A stretch of 6,715 nt of DNA from a virus (Duplodnaviria; Heunggongvirae; Uroviricota; Caudoviricetes). The notes beneath the pieces were generated by a model, which worked only from the letters and a program-made list of their open reading frames with translations, made no database searches and was not told the origin of the DNA. The position numbers and the translations under genes were made by a program. The DNA is taken from the IMG/VR virus record IMGVR_UViG_2711768053_000010; one strand, 5' to 3'. Below are positions 426 through 6,044 of this stretch, piece by piece; within the stretch, counting starts at the first letter, position 1, and every line of letters begins with the position of its first letter.

Positions 426-2123
426 TCAGGCGATAAGGTCGCCGTATTTTTCGCGCAGGCTCGTAGCCTGTTGGGCGTCTGCGGCAAGTTCGCTGCTGTT
501 TGTTGGTGCGCCAGTGTTGCTGTGGGTGTGGTTTGCAGTGTGTGTGGCCAGCAACTGAACCAGATCCAGAATATCAATCAACAACGTCAGCAGATTAAGC
601 CCGGATTTTTCCCGTGAGCCACCGCGACCGATAAATACAGTCGGGGCGGTAAATTCCAGGCCGCCGTCCGCCCGGCATGTTCTGCGGCCTCCCACGTTTT
701 CGGTGAGGTTATGTTCGATGGTGGATGTCGCCCCTTTGAGTTTAGTCAGCAAATCCTGCGCTACCATCTGGATATGCTCACTGGCTGCGATCGCGTAATG
801 GCCGGTAGTAAGGTGCTCTATTTGTCCTGCCATTAGCTTGCTGGTTCCCAGAACGCTGGTTATATCGTTTGCCTGTACTGTGGTTGTTCTGGTTGTTGTT
901 GTGCGTTCCTCCTGATCGCTGTTAATGGTTCGCCGGGCTGAATGTTCTCTGATTTGCTGGTCGGTTTCTCTGTGCCAGCTCCCGTCAGTCGTGACACGCT
1001 GAAACACTTCTGCGCGCTGTTGTTGCAATTGTTCGCCGGGCTTTACATCAGGCAGGTTATGGCCAGCGGGTAAGATTTGCCTGATAACAGGCTTATCCGG
1101 GCGTCCTTCAATGTTGGATATTTCCACGATGGTGCCTGCTGGCGGGTAGGCAAAACATCCCGCCTCACTGCCAGCCATGGGGACGGGGAGGGGTACTGCC
1201 GGGTAAACAGGCGTATCGTTTTTATCGTTGCCGTTCTCATCAAGCAACTGCACATCGACGGCGTAGCGTGGGCGGAAGCTGTCGGCTACATCGCCCAGGG
1301 TGACGGATTCCGTTGGGGCAATGACGCGCGCCAGCCGGGTATGTAGCGTACCGCTGGCCAGTTCCGGGAACTGTGTTTCCATTTGTCTGCGTAATGGTGA
1401 TTTGGAAACAGGGCTACCCGTGGCGGTAAGGCGCTCCCATGTCAGGGTCATTTTCTCGTTGTTGAGGGCTACACGGGTAATGCGCCCGGCCGGAAGGTTC
1501 ACGCCCGGTCGCACAGTTTCCATAAACATGATGTCGATGCTGTTTCCGCCGCTTTGCCCGAGTGTGTACTGTTGCGGAATATCCGGCATTGTAATACTGG
1601 CAAATCGTGAATCAGCTGCGCTTCCCACAAATACAGAACCGTCCGGCATTGGATGCCAGACGTAATCGCTGATACTGAATGCTCGCCCCAGTTGGCTGAG
1701 CAGTTGTGCTCCGCTGCCGCTGTGGGTGATGTAGGGAGTTGGTGTGCTGGCGTAATCCGCATCTGGCGTGATGAAAACGATGCCGCTTTGTTTACCCAGA
1801 TTATCGAGTACCCCCCGCAACGTCGGGTGTTGCATGGAGCAGGGGAAATCAAAATCCAGCACAGCAGCTGCTTCGCGGATAAAAAGGCGACGTGAGCCAT
1901 TTTCAGCAGGTTGATCGCGCTCAATGTAGCCGGAGAAATAGCGCCATGCTTCACCGTCACGGCCGAGATCAATTTGTACCATTGCGCCGGCAAGGGTGTG
2001 TTCGGGTGACAGATTGTTAACAGAAATGAAGCCACGACCGGCAGCATTCAGGGTAAGAACAAGGCTTATATCGGCAATTTCCACCCGTTCGCCATTAATC
2101 ATGCAGCGTTGTATCAATTTCAT
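426..2123 (-). CDS. Baseplate hub / central spike fusion protein (gp27/gpD-like N-terminal domain plus gp5/gpV-like OB-fold and His-rich apex; VgrG-like)
   Basis: 565-aa ORF. Residues about 311-358 (PLPVPMAGSEAGCFAYPPAGTIVEISNIEGRPDKPVIRQILPAGHNLP) match the gp5/VgrG OB-fold signature (P-x-G-x-V-x-V-x-F-x-EG-x-PD-x-P-I ... N-x-P). The C-terminal LLATHTANHTHSNTGAPTNSS resembles the His-x-His apex of P2 gpV (...LHTHKHPGDSGGTTGSPL, from memory). The N-terminal 270 aa follow the general hub-domain pattern (YFSGYIERDQPAENGSRRLFIREAAAVL; SGAQLLSQLGRAFSISDYVWHPMPDGSVFVG). The ORF itself is near-certain; the product assignment is moderate. Confidence 0.6.
   Translation of the reverse strand: MKLIQRCMINGERVEIADISLVLTLNAAGRGFISVNNLSPEHTLAGAMVQIDLGRDGEAWRYFSGYIERDQPAENGSRRLFIREAAAVLDFDFPCSMQHPTLRGVLDNLGKQSGIVFITPDADYASTPTPYITHSGSGAQLLSQLGRAFSISDYVWHPMPDGSVFVGSAADSRFASITMPDIPQQYTLGQSGGNSIDIMFMETVRPGVNLPAGRITRVALNNEKMTLTWERLTATGSPVSKSPLRRQMETQFPELASGTLHTRLARVIAPTESVTLGDVADSFRPRYAVDVQLLDENGNDKNDTPVYPAVPLPVPMAGSEAGCFAYPPAGTIVEISNIEGRPDKPVIRQILPAGHNLPDVKPGEQLQQQRAEVFQRVTTDGSWHRETDQQIREHSARRTINSDQEERTTTTRTTTVQANDITSVLGTSKLMAGQIEHLTTGHYAIAASEHIQMVAQDLLTKLKGATSTIEHNLTENVGGRRTCRADGGLEFTAPTVFIGRGGSREKSGLNLLTLLIDILDLVQLLATHTANHTHSNTGAPTNSSELAADAQQATSLREKYGDLIA
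429..451 (+). terminator. Weak hairpin plus T-run on the plus strand, overlapping the 3' end of the hub-spike gene
   Basis: GGCGA (429-433), loop TAAGG, TCGCC (439-443), then GTATTTTT (444-451). The stem is only 5 bp. It could terminate a rightward transcript from the 1-425 flank, convergent with the tail operon. Confidence 0.25.
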
Positions 2124-2695
2124 GTTTTCCCTTCCTCTTTCACGCTCCCGATGCCAACAGCATCCAGACCAGAGCCAACGGCATCATTGATTTTTTTCCA
2201 GAACGAACTTTGCGTATTCATGCCTTTGTCTGGTGCCTGTTCGCTGCCATTCTGGGTCTGCTGTCTGGCGATGGTTTTCTGCGAACCGCTGCGTGCGGAT
2301 GCTTTCTCTGGCACGCTTAATTTTTCCCTGAGAGTAAAGGTGATCTGCCAGTGCATTTTTCCCTGTTGTTCCGTGGCATCAATGCCACCAGAAAATACCC
2401 CCTGTCGCATATTGATTGCCTTCGCGGTAGCGTTAGCAATGCGATATGTTTTTTTAGCACCGTTGCTTTCTGTTGCCTCCGCAAGCTGAAAAATACGGGT
2501 CAGAATAGCTTCATCGTTAAAATCAATAACCCCCGACACGCGCAGCTCTTTAGCCTTGTTTCCCTGCTGGGCGCTCGTGGTGCTGGTTGACTGTCCGGAC
2601 ATATCTTTGTCCGGTAGTTGCATGGTGGCGCTGACGGTGATGTTGCGCAGCAGAATGGCTTCTCCGTCAAGCGCAAGGACAATCATCTGGGTCAT
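2120..2695 (-). CDS. Hypothetical protein (191 aa), possibly baseplate-associated
   Basis: ORF with an AAGGGAAG Shine-Dalgarno-like sequence 8-12 nt upstream of its ATG. It overlaps the 237-aa ORF by 29 nt and its stop overlaps the start of the hub-spike gene (ATGA at 2120-2123). No confident motif. Any link to baseplate tube-initiator or LysM-type proteins (P2 gpU/gpX class), which usually sit just upstream of hub genes, is positional inference only. Confidence 0.5.
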   Translation of the reverse strand: MTQMIVLALDGEAILLRNITVSATMQLPDKDMSGQSTSTTSAQQGNKAKELRVSGVIDFNDEAILTRIFQLAEATESNGAKKTYRIANATAKAINMRQGVFSGGIDATEQQGKMHWQITFTLREKLSVPEKASARSGSQKTIARQQTQNGSEQAPDKGMNTQSSFWKKINDAVGSGLDAVGIGSVKEEGKT

Positions 2696-3380
2696 GTAGT
2701 GCTTCCCTTAGTGATGAGAGATTATCGCCGACGAACAGCATCACAGCTGTAAAAACCCACTCGGGGTGTGGGATGTTTTTTTGTATCAGCACTGCAGCTT
2801 GGCTAAGGGCTCCTTTGTAGCAAAAGCGCCACACCGGGCAAAATTTTTGCCGGAGTGCGGCCTGCTGATTAGCTATTTCCTGTAAGGCTTTATCTCTCGC
2901 ATTCATGAACTGATGCAGTGATGATGACAATGTTTCCGGTGATGTAGCGGCAGGAGTGGCTGCCTGTGCAATGGTTGCCGCCAGCGACATGCTGCGAGTG
3001 GTCTGTGTCGACAGCATTATCGGTTCCGGAAGTGATGTTGCCGGTCTGGCGGGGATTTGCATTCTGCTGATGGCCAGTGAAAGCTGGCTGGAGATCATGC
3101 GGGACATTCGTCCCACCTCCGGCAACGGAAATGCGCCTGAAAATTGCCTGGCGAGTGATAAAAACTCGCCAGCAGAAGGAGCGCAAAATAACAGCGCCAC
3201 AATGTCCTTTTCCGTGTTTTCTTTCAGATAGGGTAAAAGTGCAGATACAGCATTTTCGGGGCTGAGATAACGCCCCGATGGTTTGATGTTTCCGGTATTT
3301 TCTGACCATGGATGAAGGCAAACCACAGAGCATTTAATGTTCATGGCTGACGGGCGCAGAATTGCGTTTTCCCATTTCAT
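2667..3380 (-). CDS. Hypothetical protein (237 aa), function unknown
   Basis: Long ORF whose ATG overlaps the stop of the upstream chaperone in an ATGA arrangement (3377-3380). The N-terminal 90 aa look globular; the middle is S/T/A/P/Q-rich (PARPATSLPEPIMLSTQTTRSMSLAATIAQAATPAATSPETLSSS) followed by a short helical-looking stretch (ARDKALQEIANQQAALRQKF). I recognise no family motif. Confidence is reduced because a hairpin with flanking A/T runs (2751-2782) and a near-palindrome (2835-2853) lie inside its 3' third. Confidence 0.45.
   Translation of the reverse strand: MKWENAILRPSAMNIKCSVVCLHPWSENTGNIKPSGRYLSPENAVSALLPYLKENTEKDIVALLFCAPSAGEFLSLARQFSGAFPLPEVGRMSRMISSQLSLAISRMQIPARPATSLPEPIMLSTQTTRSMSLAATIAQAATPAATSPETLSSSLHQFMNARDKALQEIANQQAALRQKFCPVWRFCYKGALSQAAVLIQKNIPHPEWVFTAVMLFVGDNLSSLREALHDPDDCPCA
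2751..2782. terminator. Terminator-like hairpin flanked by A5 and T7, embedded in the 237-aa ORF
   Basis: AAAAA (2751-2755), then CCCAC (2756-2760), loop TCGGGGT, GTGGG (2768-2772), then AT and TTTTTTT (2776-2782). The symmetric A and T runs mean it could terminate on either strand. It lies 55-85 nt upstream of the 191-aa start codon and encodes QKNIPHPEWVF of the 237-aa ORF. Confidence 0.3.
2835..2853. promoter_or_regulatory. Near-perfect 19-bp palindrome CGGGCAAAA-T-TTTTGCCGG
   Basis: Read from the sequence: arms GCAAAA / TTTTGC around T2844, extended by flanking CGG/CCG with one mismatch. Operator-like dyad symmetry, located inside the 237-aa ORF about 140 nt upstream of the 191-aa start. 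Function not demonstrated. Confidence 0.2.
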
Positions 3381-3958
3381 TCTGACTCTCCAGCCTGAAA
3401 AGCGCGGATGTCGGCAAGATTATTCAGGCTATCCAGCACGTCCTTCATCTGTCGCTGACGTCGATAAATTTCATCATTGCGGTTAACCTGCGCCTGCGCC
3501 ATTGCTGTCGCCAGTTCTTCCAGTTCCGGCATTGACAGTTTCACCTGTTGATTATCGGCATCACCCCACGCAAGGGTGGTTCGTGCCGTATCGGATTTCG
3601 CCGCCATTACTACCGGATAAAGACGGGCCATTGAGTCGGGGCCGGCGTTCCAGGTGTGACCGTTCCATTCGAACATGAACGGTTGCGCTTCCTGTTCTGT
3701 GCGCCACGCCTCGATTTCTCGTTTTTTAGCGTCCTTTGCTGCTGCGATAAGTTCAGGCGTGACGGTGAACGGGGCGATTTCACCCCATTTGCCGCTCTGT
3801 AACTCCTCCCAGATGCGCTGGCCTGTCGGTGCGGTATCATCCTGCATGGCGGTATACAGGACGAATTCCGTTTCACCTTCAAATAACACCTCGCAGTCAA
3901 CCGCGCCATTTTCAAGATAATGCGCGTTTCTGATGCCTTTTACCGCTCTGATTCTCAT
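3377..3958 (-). CDS. Tail fibre assembly chaperone, DUF4376-like
   Basis: 193-aa ORF immediately downstream of the 690-aa fibre, with a GGGGA Shine-Dalgarno-like sequence about 8 nt upstream. The segment FMFEWNGHTWNAGPDSMARLYPVVMAAKSDTARTTLAWGDADNQQVKLSMPELEELATAMAQAQVNRNDEIYRRQRQMKDVLDSLNNLADIRAFQ fits my recollection of the DUF4376 pattern (FEW-GH-W ... W-DADN ... EL ... RQR-MK ... DIR) found in fibre chaperones. It is a different family from the Tfa at 6051-6602. Confidence 0.7.
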   Translation of the reverse strand: MRIRAVKGIRNAHYLENGAVDCEVLFEGETEFVLYTAMQDDTAPTGQRIWEELQSGKWGEIAPFTVTPELIAAAKDAKKREIEAWRTEQEAQPFMFEWNGHTWNAGPDSMARLYPVVMAAKSDTARTTLAWGDADNQQVKLSMPELEELATAMAQAQVNRNDEIYRRQRQMKDVLDSLNNLADIRAFQAGESE

Positions 3959-3971
3959 GTCTTATTCCCCG

Positions 3972-6044
3972 TTACTCGATGCGCACAAACAGGCATGTTA
4001 AAGCCCCGTTGGTAGCCACGCCGCTGTAACCGGACAGCGCCATATAACGCCCCGGAAAACTGTAGCTGCCTGCACCATAAACTGTAAGTTGTGCTGAATA
4101 GGTGTATGAGCCCGTCTCACTGAACATGGATGCGATACGAACCGGCCCCAGACGGGACCCCGGCACCACGTCGCCCAGGCCAATTTTTATGGACGTATCA
4201 CCCGTCTCAGTTCCCTGATATGCCGCCAGTATTGGCACACCAACCGCCGGATATTTGTAATATGAGCCTGAGCCCGCCATCCTGGACAACAGGTACGCCA
4301 GTGAATCTCCGTCGTAGACAACTACCCGCGATGACATGTTCCAGCTGTTATCGCTGTCGTTGTACCGGTACTGCATATAGTGAATACAGTGTTCACCCTG
4401 ATAATACTGGTTGTAACACATCAGGGTTTTAAATTTGCGGACTGTGTCAGATTCACTGTTGGCGTACGGGGACCACATCACGTCAATAATGCCGTTAAAT
4501 TGCGTGGTACCGGTAAGCAGTTGTGATGAATCTGTAATACTGACCGCATACCGCCCCGGCGTGACTTTCTTCAGCCATTCAACGAAATCAGACAGTCCCT
4601 CAAACGCCAGAGCGTCGGCACTGGCAAATGCCTGACCAAATCCATGCATGCCGGACAGTGCCAGCCTGCCCTGTGTGCGGTCGCGGATATCACTCTGGGG
4701 TTCCATCGTTGCAGCCGCTTTCAGCTCAAGCTCCGTGCGCATGGCTTCAGGTGTGTCCAGTGCCAGTAATGCGCGGGCTTTTTCTGACAGCTGCGCCAGT
4801 AAAATCCGGCCCTCTTCACTGAAATAAGGCAGCGTGTTTTCTTCCGGTGTTATCTGGCTGACAGCCGTTAACACATCATTAAGCGGCTGTTTACCTGCCA
4901 GTGCGTTCGTGATTGTCGTCGCAAAGTTCGGGTCACCACCCAGCGCCGCTGCCAGCTCGTTCAGCGTGTCCAGGGTTTCCGGTGATGAGTCAACCAGCGC
5001 GGCAAGCAGTTTGCGGACAAACGCCGCATTGGCTATTTCATTACCTGCTGCATCATCCGGCGGTGTTGGCGTGGACGGCGTTCCGGTCAGTGCCGGGCTG
5101 TTCAGTGGCGCGCGGGTTTCAATCAGTGCCCGGAGTGAAGCCTCATTGACTTTCAGGTTTTCCCAGCCAACCAGATAACCATTACTACCTCCCCAGTAAC
5201 GGTTATAATAAATATGGCCGTTAATGCCGTAGAGAATAATGACTTTGACTTCTGCTTCCGAATTGGAATAGGCTTTAGGTTCTGGCCAGATAATTTCAAT
5301 AACACCGTTTGTCTGTATGCCTGGTACCACCACATTTGTGTCCGCAAATACAGTATAACGACCGGGTTTTGCCGTTTTTACCCACCTGAGAAAATCAGTC
5401 CCTGATTTAAATTCTGTTCTGTCGCTACTGGAAAATATTTTCCCGAATCCGAACATGCCAGGAATCGCCAGACGGCCCGGAGTTCTGTCGTGAGTGTCAT
5501 TCTGTGGTTCCATTGTGGCTGCGCTTTTCAGTCCCAGATTGCCTCGGGATTCCTGTTGCGCCTCTTCCCCCTCTGCTGCAATTTCTGACAAACGGTTAGG
5601 GATTTTCAGCATTGATTTCAGCTCTGGATAAAGATCTATCTGCCAGCTCTGTGGAGGAACAGTAATTTGCGCAGCCTGAGCAATGCCGCTGTATATAATC
5701 GTGAAATTACGAATAAGTGACTCGCCTGTCACTTTTTGTCGAACAGGCGTTTTTATTACGCCGCATAGTGTTCCGCTGGCCTGATGGATGAGGCAAATCC
5801 AGTCATAGCTGAATGCACAGTCATCAGGAACAACCGCGCTACACACAATATTGTTCGGGCTTAACTGGCCATAGGTCAGTTCATTCACGGTATATGTGAT
5901 TTTTTCTTCCGGAACGGTATTATCTTCGTGCGTTGGTTCCCGCTCCATCAGGGCAAAAATAATAGTGTCAGGGCGTGCAGGTAAATTACTGGCTGTGCAT
6001 TCAGCAACCCACTTTTCAAATGCTTTCGTCAACAATGCGCTCAT
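3972..6044 (-). CDS. Tail fibre protein (690 aa), mosaic, with an internally duplicated domain
   Basis: Residues about 311-386 (RAPLNSPALTGTPSTPTPP...ANAAFV...LVDSSPETLDTLNELAAALGGDPNFATTITNALAGKQP) match the conserved block shared by P2 H, lambda Stf and related fibres (KAPLNSPALTGTPTTPTA...ALVDSSPDALNTLNELAAALGNDPNFATTMTNALAGKQP, from memory). The start codon is 6 nt after the Tfa stop and the stop is 13 nt before the next chaperone. The C-terminus is rich in G/Y/S, typical of receptor-binding tips. Confidence 0.85.
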   Translation of the reverse strand: MSALLTKAFEKWVAECTASNLPARPDTIIFALMEREPTHEDNTVPEEKITYTVNELTYGQLSPNNIVCSAVVPDDCAFSYDWICLIHQASGTLCGVIKTPVRQKVTGESLIRNFTIIYSGIAQAAQITVPPQSWQIDLYPELKSMLKIPNRLSEIAAEGEEAQQESRGNLGLKSAATMEPQNDTHDRTPGRLAIPGMFGFGKIFSSSDRTEFKSGTDFLRWVKTAKPGRYTVFADTNVVVPGIQTNGVIEIIWPEPKAYSNSEAEVKVIILYGINGHIYYNRYWGGSNGYLVGWENLKVNEASLRALIETRAPLNSPALTGTPSTPTPPDDAAGNEIANAAFVRKLLAALVDSSPETLDTLNELAAALGGDPNFATTITNALAGKQPLNDVLTAVSQITPEENTLPYFSEEGRILLAQLSEKARALLALDTPEAMRTELELKAAATMEPQSDIRDRTQGRLALSGMHGFGQAFASADALAFEGLSDFVEWLKKVTPGRYAVSITDSSQLLTGTTQFNGIIDVMWSPYANSESDTVRKFKTLMCYNQYYQGEHCIHYMQYRYNDSDNSWNMSSRVVVYDGDSLAYLLSRMAGSGSYYKYPAVGVPILAAYQGTETGDTSIKIGLGDVVPGSRLGPVRIASMFSETGSYTYSAQLTVYGAGSYSFPGRYMALSGYSGVATNGALTCLFVRIE
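4335..4725 (-). repeat. Intragenic repeat copy 2 inside the 690-aa fibre gene (about aa 441-570), GC-rich
   Basis: LKAAATMEPQSDIRDRTQGRLALSGMHGFG...GRYAVSITDS...NGIIDVMWSPY is paralogous to copy 1. It lies downstream of the conserved fibre block and continues into the unique G/Y/S-rich C-terminal tip. Confidence 0.6.
5145..5530 (-). repeat. Intragenic repeat copy 1 inside the 690-aa fibre gene (about aa 172-300), AT-rich
   Basis: The protein segment LKSAATMEPQNDTHDRTPGRLAIPGMFGFG...GRYTVFADTN...NGVIEIIWPEP is paralogous to aa about 441-570 of the same protein. DNA at about 5490-5530 (gtcattctgtggttccattgtggctgcgcttttcag) aligns at roughly 80% with 4690-4726 (atcactctggggttccatcgttgcagccgctttcag). 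Hand count of line 5221-5280 gives about 38% GC. Confidence 0.6.

Follow-up and report, generated by a model that had tools for sequence, protein, structure and literature searches.

An overlapping gene pair at the hub end of an HP1-type tail operon in Escherichia coli: a probable tube initiator and a candidate baseplate component

The window analysed in this study is a 6,715-nucleotide (nt) stretch of DNA (IMG/VR virus record IMGVR_UViG_2711768053_000010), which is identified by its sequence as the right end of an Escherichia coli prophage belonging to the P2 family (Peduoviridae) and its HP1 subgroup. Two overlapping open reading frames (ORFs) within it, encoding proteins of 237 and 191 amino acids (aa), are the third-to-last and second-to-last genes of the late tail operon of this HP1-subgroup prophage, and they are followed by the gene for a 565-aa hub-spike protein. 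We consider it probable that the three proteins together constitute the central hub module of an HP1-type baseplate, in which the 191-aa protein would act as the tube initiator and the 237-aa protein as a low-copy baseplate part. Both genes are new members of known families: that of the 191-aa protein has a Pfam entry, and that of the 237-aa protein is catalogued with its function given as unknown.

Conservation of the gene pair in HP1-type prophages

In E. coli A36, the corresponding region is the end of a prophage adjoining serS, in which the genes follow the order portal, terminase, scaffold, P2-family capsid, gpR, gpS, sheath (DUF2586), tube (HP1_Orf24), holin and M15 endolysin, and then tail chaperone, tape measure, DUF2590, baseplate J, gpI, fibre, Tfa, fibre, DUF4376, the 237-, 191- and 565-aa proteins and hok. 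The same late gene order is seen in HP1/HP2, YenM_324, phiO18P, K139, phi3 and proACA1-A; its last three genes in HP1/HP2 are orf33, orf34 and orf35, names that are used below for the three families. These families occur in the same order in HP1/HP2 (orf33-34-35), K139 (orf37-39), phiO18P (gp44-46), ESSI-2, SW3/SI7 and YenM_324 (gp33-35), where, as here, the triad takes up the right end of the late operon, behind the genes for the fibres and their assembly, and its members overlap or abut. Identity of the E. coli triad to its counterparts ranges from 22-36% (HP2) to approximately 30-50% (ESSI-2-type), and the E. coli element differs from its HP1-type relatives in its second fibre cassette and in the DUF4376 protein encoded directly upstream of the triad.

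Of 5426 complete E. coli genomes, 48 contain the stretch from position 2000 to 3500 of the window at 90-99% identity, and one more has it at 80-90%. All of these matches were chromosomal, and in 48 of the 49 genomes having the region at least 80% of the stretch was covered. In RefSeq, the same two coding sequences (CDSs) are annotated with the same ends in an E. coli prophage that is 98.8% identical. A further IMG/VR contig (IMGVR_UViG_2802429221_000016; 6709 nt) carries the same gene set, with proteins 98-99.5% identical to those of the window.

Synteny was surveyed in 84 loci (80 IMG/VR contigs, HP2, YenM_324, E. coli A36 and the window), a set that was extended to 133 loci by four more distant phages and by 45 viral contigs retrieved with the orf34 sequences of phi3, K139 and ACA1 as queries. 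Each of orf33, orf34 and orf35 was present once, intact and in the order 33-34-35 in 84/84 loci, and this order was kept in every informative locus of the larger set, from Haemophilus to Vibrio, Pseudomonas and Pseudoalteromonas. The orf33-orf34 pair occupied the same position in 133/133 loci, the hub gene being missing only in two contigs that end earlier. Co-occurrence of the pair with the hub-spike gene across prophages, which had been proposed as a check in a first-pass annotation made from the sequence of the window alone, thus holds with no exception among the informative loci.

All three genes are under purifying selection: the ratio of non-synonymous to synonymous substitution rates (dN/dS), calculated by the Nei-Gojobori method for 23 close relatives including the window (median dS 0.25-0.48), was 0.17 for the gene of the 237-aa protein, 0.054 for that of the 191-aa protein and 0.081 for that of the 565-aa protein. 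Homologues of the 237-aa protein were full-length down to 48% identity in a word-indexed search, and a profile search of the orf33 family yielded 148 representatives at 50% clustering, which fall into length classes of approximately 235 and 295 aa. The 191-aa protein had 73 homologues, all carrying Pfam family PF25759. Taken together, the homologues, the low dN/dS ratios, the coverage in E. coli genomes and the conserved synteny indicate that both ORFs are real genes, as the first-pass annotation had argued from their packing.

The 191-aa protein and its predicted tube fold

In silico analysis of the 191-aa protein identified a match to PF25759 (HP1_ORF34, baseplate complex protein) at 182.1 bits (cut-off 27; E 1e-53), in which residues 2-175 align with positions 2-177 of the 180-position profile. 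All 25 aligned homologues match this family as well, and close relatives in UniRef are named 'baseplate complex protein'; the view of the first-pass annotation that no motif could be assigned was therefore mistaken for this protein. An AlphaFold2 (AF2) model, built from a 25-sequence alignment, displays a tail-tube fold with a predicted local distance difference test (pLDDT) score of approximately 90 over residues 50-125, and its best matches in the PDB are tube initiators and baseplate centrepieces. Searches of the PDB with the sequence and with a profile yielded no meaningful match. The protein comprises a tube domain (residues ~1-125), an S/T/Q-rich linker of variable length (~128-160) and a C-terminal helix (~162-177). 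This layout resembles that of P2 gpU, although the helix is a low-confidence part of the model: the pattern LSWFE..LKKID.AIG is conserved there, but pLDDT is below 50 and the helix is absent from the K139 and ACA1 homologues.

The prophage possesses a separate major tube gene as well as homologues of gpR and gpS. Since its own major tube protein, gpR and gpS are present, a second tube-fold protein encoded beside the hub is best read as a tube initiator, and the 191-aa protein is most likely the tube initiator or baseplate centrepiece of this tail. In this, one of the proposals of the first-pass annotation, that of small baseplate components, survives in part: its tube-initiator-like version agrees with the tube-fold model and PF25759, while its tape-measure-like version does not hold, as the prophage has its own tape measure. 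An alignment of the orf34 profile with the tube protein of the prophage itself (hhalign) was colinear and non-significant (E 0.078).

The proteins to which the 191-aa protein is likened in function are P2 gpU, pyocin R2 PA0626 ('ripcord'), Mu N, Pam3 gp17 and XM1 gp11, the last of which organises the XM1 baseplate (PMC10457771). In P2, cryo-electron microscopy has placed six copies of gpU on three of gpD, with the C-terminal helix of gpU contacting the wedge triplex (10.64898/2026.09.14.750843), and in the centrepieces of pyocin R2 and Milano the tube domain is followed by a helical wedge-joining domain (PMC10811340). The 191-aa protein differs from such centrepieces in having neither a helical bundle (as in PA0626 and Milano gp25) nor a LysM domain (as in Milano, PVC and AFP), and, unlike in the P2 gpU/PA0626 class, its gene is not adjacent to the tape-measure gene. 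The model suggests that the 191-aa protein works like gpU, not that it is a member of the gpU family; the homology of the orf34 homologue of ACA1 to gpU was likewise called 'uncertain' (PMC10612066).

The S/T/A/Q-rich and probably disordered segments recorded in the first-pass annotation were evident in both proteins, with a S/T/A/Q fraction of 0.50 in residues 25-50 and 128-165 of the 191-aa protein and of 0.53 in residues 95-160 of the 237-aa protein, and AF2 confidence is low in each of them. However, the segment from residue 25 to 50 is the most conserved part of the orf34 family, D/K30-D31-x-S33-G34, G45 and K47 being invariant at 26-38% identity, which indicates that this S/T-rich stretch is not a loose linker. 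By analogy with tube-fold rings, the D-x-S-G...G-x-K loop that it contains (residues ~25-50) is likely to be the long lumen-lining hairpin.

Homologues of the 191-aa protein bear the labels 'hypothetical', 'adenine glycosylase', 'nucleoid DNA-binding protein', 'DNA-binding protein' or 'tail-collar fiber protein' in the records of YenM_324 (gp34), SMHB1 (PP_00047), PV94, Vibrio 1.202.O (RefSeq) and phi3 (gp33) and in one UniRef name. The odd labels among these look like propagated misannotations, as they fit neither the Pfam family nor the predicted fold.

The 237-aa protein and the missing glue of HP1-type baseplates

The 237-aa protein matched two PHROGs, both of unknown function (phrog_1677, E 4.7e-39 over residues 13-222; phrog_31292, E 1.1e-72), and its alignment with HP2 orf33 reached a probability of 99.9% (hhalign; E 3e-35). 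Homologues detected by hmmsearch include K139 orf37, phiO18P gp44, an unannotated ORF of phi3 and ACA1 gp46 (E 9e-59 to 5e-18). Conversely, no family was found for it in Pfam, NCBIfam or PADLOC, and no relative in the PDB by sequence or profile; a Pfam scan of 72 members of the orf33 family and of its long-form homologues returned scattered noise and no LysM domain, the N-terminal extension included. The motifs VHPW..G.G....SG.YLSP.NAV and NIPHPE...F....LF.G..LS.L lie near the N- and C-terminus, respectively, and the sequence varies mostly within the first 20 residues and a central insertion. Relative to the E. coli protein, the K139 and phiO18P homologues have approximately 55 extra residues at the N-terminus, and ACA1 gp46 (209 aa) aligns only from profile position ~70. 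In one profile match, the C-terminal half of an orf35 homologue follows directly on the first ~80 residues of an orf33 homologue, probably through a deletion in a decaying prophage, and another homologue has an Ala/Thr-rich N-terminal extension of ~300 residues. The orf33 homologue of Pseudomonas phage phi3 (NC_030940), which is unannotated in RefSeq, is located at ~2590-3504 (hmmsearch E 9e-48).

Evidence bearing on the place of the protein in the virion comes from ACA1, in which gp46 is the orf33 homologue, gp47 the orf34 homologue (tentatively gpU-like), gp48 the hub and gp49 the spike (Hwang et al. 2023, PMC10612066); this phage has separate hub and spike genes and a diversity-generating retroelement upstream. 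Mass spectrometry of purified ACA1 virions detected gp46 with a spectral count over molecular weight (SC/MW) of 0.09, as compared to 0.08 for gpW, 0.05 for gpJ and 0.06 for gpV (PMC10612066 Table S2). The record of YenM_324 calls its orf33 homologue, gp33, a 'structural protein', a label for which a literature search found no source.

The minimal baseplate of P2 is composed of gpV, gpD, gpU, gpX (a LysM glue present in six copies), gpW, gpJ and gpI (10.64898/2026.09.14.750843). Each essential P2 tail protein has an HP1-type counterpart except gpX, and orf33 encodes the only protein of the HP1-type tail cluster lacking a P2 counterpart; in terms of function, HP1-type phages have a gene for every role of the minimal P2 baseplate but that of the glue (gpX, PA0627, T4 gp53; baseplate wedge 4), and among the tail-cluster proteins the 237-aa protein alone is left with no role. 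The HP1-type records examined contain no LysM annotation, nor did Pfam find such a domain in the CDSs scanned. The likeness is one of elimination, as the 237-aa protein has no LysM domain, no similarity to gpX-type glue in sequence or fold and a length of 237 as opposed to 67 aa, and the hhalign probability of its family against gpX was 0.6%. Comparison of both the orf33 and orf34 profiles with all P2 tail proteins as single sequences gave hhalign probabilities of at most 1.7%, in a test of low power in which the accepted analogues W, FII, D and V also score nothing, and phmmer searches of HP1-type loci with P2 proteins were uninformative.

Because of the detection of gp46 in ACA1 virions and of this bookkeeping around gpX, we favour the inference that the 237-aa protein is a low-copy structural baseplate component at the joint between hub and wedges, where, by elimination and analogy, it possibly takes the place of the LysM glue. 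It is conceivable, though rather doubtful, that the orf33 family represents a structurally new baseplate component of the HP1 subgroup, with an alpha/beta domain and a long helical insertion, which stands in for the LysM glue as well as for the helical wedge-joining domain of other contractile systems. If this were true, phages with orf33-type proteins would couple the hub to the wedges, and perhaps trigger contraction, in a way unseen in solved baseplates.

The 565-aa hub-spike protein

The 565-aa protein belongs to phrog_2258 ('baseplate protein'; E 1.5e-235), with additional weak, sub-threshold matches to the Phage_base_V OB domain (E 0.019) and VgrG (E 3.6e-4), while a sequence search of the PDB returned nothing meaningful. 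HHpred has linked the N-terminal half of HP1 orf35 to P2 gpD and its C-terminal half to gpV (PMC10612066 Table S1). Hub and spike are fused in the enterobacterial, HP1, K139 and phiO18P lineages and split at ~231/240 in phi3-like and ACA1-like phages, and the position of this split marks the domain boundary. The 565-aa protein is a fusion of a gpD-like hub (residues ~1-231) with a gpV-like spike (~240-565), and presumably a trimer. In phi3 (NC_030940), the ORF of the gpD-like hub is unannotated in RefSeq and lies at ~4040-4738 (E 2.7e-37).

Proposed baseplate model and alternatives

In the model that we propose, the 191-aa protein would form a hexameric ring on top of the 565-aa hub-spike, and the tube protein (HP1 Orf24 family) would polymerise on this ring around the tape measure. 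The variable linker of the 191-aa protein may give it reach, and its C-terminal helix would probably extend to the wedge (J/I/DUF2590), as does the helix of P2 gpU. The 237-aa protein would join the complex of hub and tube initiator to the wedges, replacing the LysM glue (P2 gpX) and/or the helical wedge-joining domain of other centrepieces, both of which HP1-type phages lack. The parts of this model that we infer are the position of the ring, the stoichiometry and the role of the 237-aa protein as glue.

Several observations weigh against this model. A search with PF06995 (Phage_P2_GpU) of 25 orf34 members gave no match even at E <=10, and the hhalign probability of the 191-aa family against P2 gpU was 0.1%, which leaves the link to gpU as one of fold only. 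The orf34 homologue was undetected in ACA1 virions (PMC10612066), and the evidence for gp46 in virions amounts to 2 spectra and 6% coverage in one distant phage (PMC10612066 Table S2). A sequence search of the PDB yielded no HP1-type virion structure, and the ring position and copy number are accordingly predictions. The AF2 model of the 237-aa protein is weak (pLDDT 63) and has no fold match, and thus lends no structural support to a glue role. Furthermore, the 237-aa protein diverges faster than its neighbours (for example, 77% identity where these two have 95% and 95%), which would also fit a less constrained assembly factor.

A serious rival, albeit one that we hold to be unlikely, is indeed that the 237-aa protein is no structural part but helps, as an assembly factor or chaperone, to build the hub module or to attach the fibres, much as T4 gp51 or tail-fibre assembly proteins do, with only traces of it being carried along in virions. 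Its gene directly follows the fibre-assembly genes, the protein is unlike any solved baseplate component, its dN/dS (0.17) is higher than those of orf34 and orf35, from which it also differs in its faster divergence, and only 2 spectra were obtained from ACA1 virions. The normalised spectral count nevertheless equals those obtained in that experiment for proteins that are beyond doubt part of the baseplate, at six to twelve copies, and orf33 is kept in every lineage, whatever the type of fibre and fibre chaperone, and stays with the hub genes, not with the fibre genes, where a retroelement cassette intervenes. For the 191-aa protein, the competing idea is that of a tube-fold protein acting elsewhere, for instance as a distal tube plug or as a second tube species. 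This appears improbable, as genes for the tail terminator and completion proteins (gpR and gpS homologues) and for the major tube protein have already been identified, the orf34 gene always abuts the hub gene, and the cluster contains no other candidate for the adaptor that a contractile tail needs between its three-fold hub and its six-fold tube, as known from the P2 and XM1 structures.

Two further explanations place the pair outside the baseplate or merge it into one product. Accessory cargo (superinfection exclusion, defence or counter-defence, or a host-range moron) inserted beside the fibre genes had been the other proposal of the first-pass annotation, and it is in keeping with fibre-proximal regions being common insertion sites and with both proteins being unannotated or oddly annotated in many records. 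It is contradicted, and made very improbable, by the presence of the pair at the same position in all 133 related loci, the purifying selection on both genes, the tube fold and Pfam baseplate family of the 191-aa protein, a G+C content (0.49-0.55) that falls in the range seen elsewhere in the window, and a PADLOC search of both proteins whose best match (E 0.04) is noise; moreover, the variable slot of these phages sits after the hub-spike gene, where hok (E. coli), HicAB (phi3) or small hypothetical genes (YenM_324) are found. Joining of the two ORFs by a programmed +1 frameshift within their 29-nt overlap, which would yield the fused product that had been thought conceivable, is hardly credible at all. 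The 191-aa frame is indeed +1 relative to the 237-aa frame, (3380-2695) mod 3 being 1, and most enterobacterial relatives share an overlap of 29 or 35 nt, even where the upstream protein is only ~30% identical. Yet HP2 has an overlap of 14 nt, K139 one of 13 nt, and phiO18P and the ACA1-type phages one of 4 nt, so that the frame relation varies, being +1 for overlaps of 29, 35 and 14 nt and +2 for those of 4 and 13 nt. No slippery heptamer is present in 2695-2667, as the first-pass annotation had already stated along with the +1 frame; re-pairing in the +1 frame is impossible for GCT, the last sense codon before the TGA; the 191-aa gene is equipped with a separate Shine-Dalgarno-like sequence and ATG, and the N-terminus of its protein is conserved from Met1; and no fused 33-34 protein occurs among the 148 family representatives. 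The recurring 29/35-nt overlap is, to judge from the sequences, compatible with translational coupling.

Gene junctions, expression signals and neighbouring genes

The six long ORFs of the window all lie on the minus strand (Table 1). The co-orientation and tight packing of the pair with the hub-spike gene, the ATGA sequences at both outer junctions and the 29-nt inner overlap were confirmed from the sequence as the first-pass annotation had described them.

Table 1. Genes, junctions and putative expression signals in the window
Feature	Position	Strand	Remarks
Tail-fibre assembly gene	6602-6051	-	Caudo_TAP
Fibre gene, 690 aa	6044-3972	-	P2-type N-terminal collar domain
DUF4376 protein gene, 193 aa	3958-3377	-	Directly upstream of 237-aa gene
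237-aa gene, orf33 homologue	3380-2667	-	ATG start; PHROG 1677/31292
191-aa gene, orf34 homologue	2695-2120	-	ATG start; Pfam PF25759
565-aa gene, orf35 homologue, hub-spike	2123-426	-	PHROG 'baseplate protein'
ATGA overlap, DUF4376 stop / 237-aa start	3380-3377	-	Upstream gene ends GAA TGA (sequence)
ATGA overlap, 191-aa stop / 565-aa start	2123-2120	-	191-aa gene ends ACA TGA (sequence)
29-nt overlap, 237-aa stop region / 191-aa start	2695-2667	-	Read directly
Shine-Dalgarno-like GGAGAG	3391-3386	-	5 nt ahead of 237-aa ATG
Shine-Dalgarno-like AAGGGAAG	2709-2702	-	6 nt ahead of 191-aa ATG, within 237-aa coding sequence
Shine-Dalgarno-like GAGGAAGGGA	2137-2128	-	Ahead of 565-aa ATG, within 191-aa coding sequence
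Terminator-like hairpin	385-366	-	8-bp stem, 6 G-C pairs, T-rich tail; consensus match only

The terminator-like hairpin is situated approximately 40 nt 3' of the hub-spike stop codon, at the same place as an annotated terminator of K139, and is probably the end of the late tail operon. A search for sigma-70-like promoters gave 0 matches across the whole window, as against 6.5 expected from shuffled sequences; the combination of no such promoter with a terminator-like hairpin is consistent with a position at the far end of a long late operon. An Rfam scan of the window identified no RNA family.

The element carries two fibre cassettes, the second fibre gene being followed by that of the DUF4376 protein instead of a Caudo_TAP chaperone. 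The Tfa gene at 6602-6051 serves a fibre gene that lies outside the window (24471-26171 in the related locus L001). The 690-aa fibre protein contains an internal duplication of a ~115-residue domain (residues ~172-288 and ~441-553; 44% identity, E 1e-31) and may therefore carry two related modules of receptor-binding type in tandem.

Implications for HP1-type tails

The present analysis adds to these known families support at the level of fold for a tube initiator, a survey of synteny, measurements of selection and the singling out of orf33 as the one unexplained component of a baseplate that is otherwise minimal and has no LysM protein. With regard to annotation, tube initiator of HP1-type tails is the reading to adopt for the mislabelled orf34 homologues. 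Members of the HP1 subgroup are commonly found as prophages in Enterobacteria, Vibrio, Pasteurellaceae, Aeromonas and Pseudomonas, and their minimal contractile tail is one without a LysM protein and with one extra conserved protein, that of orf33, which is unlike solved baseplate proteins. The recent baseplate structure of P2 does not cover this subgroup, and orf33 perhaps represents a new solution to the joint between hub and wedge.

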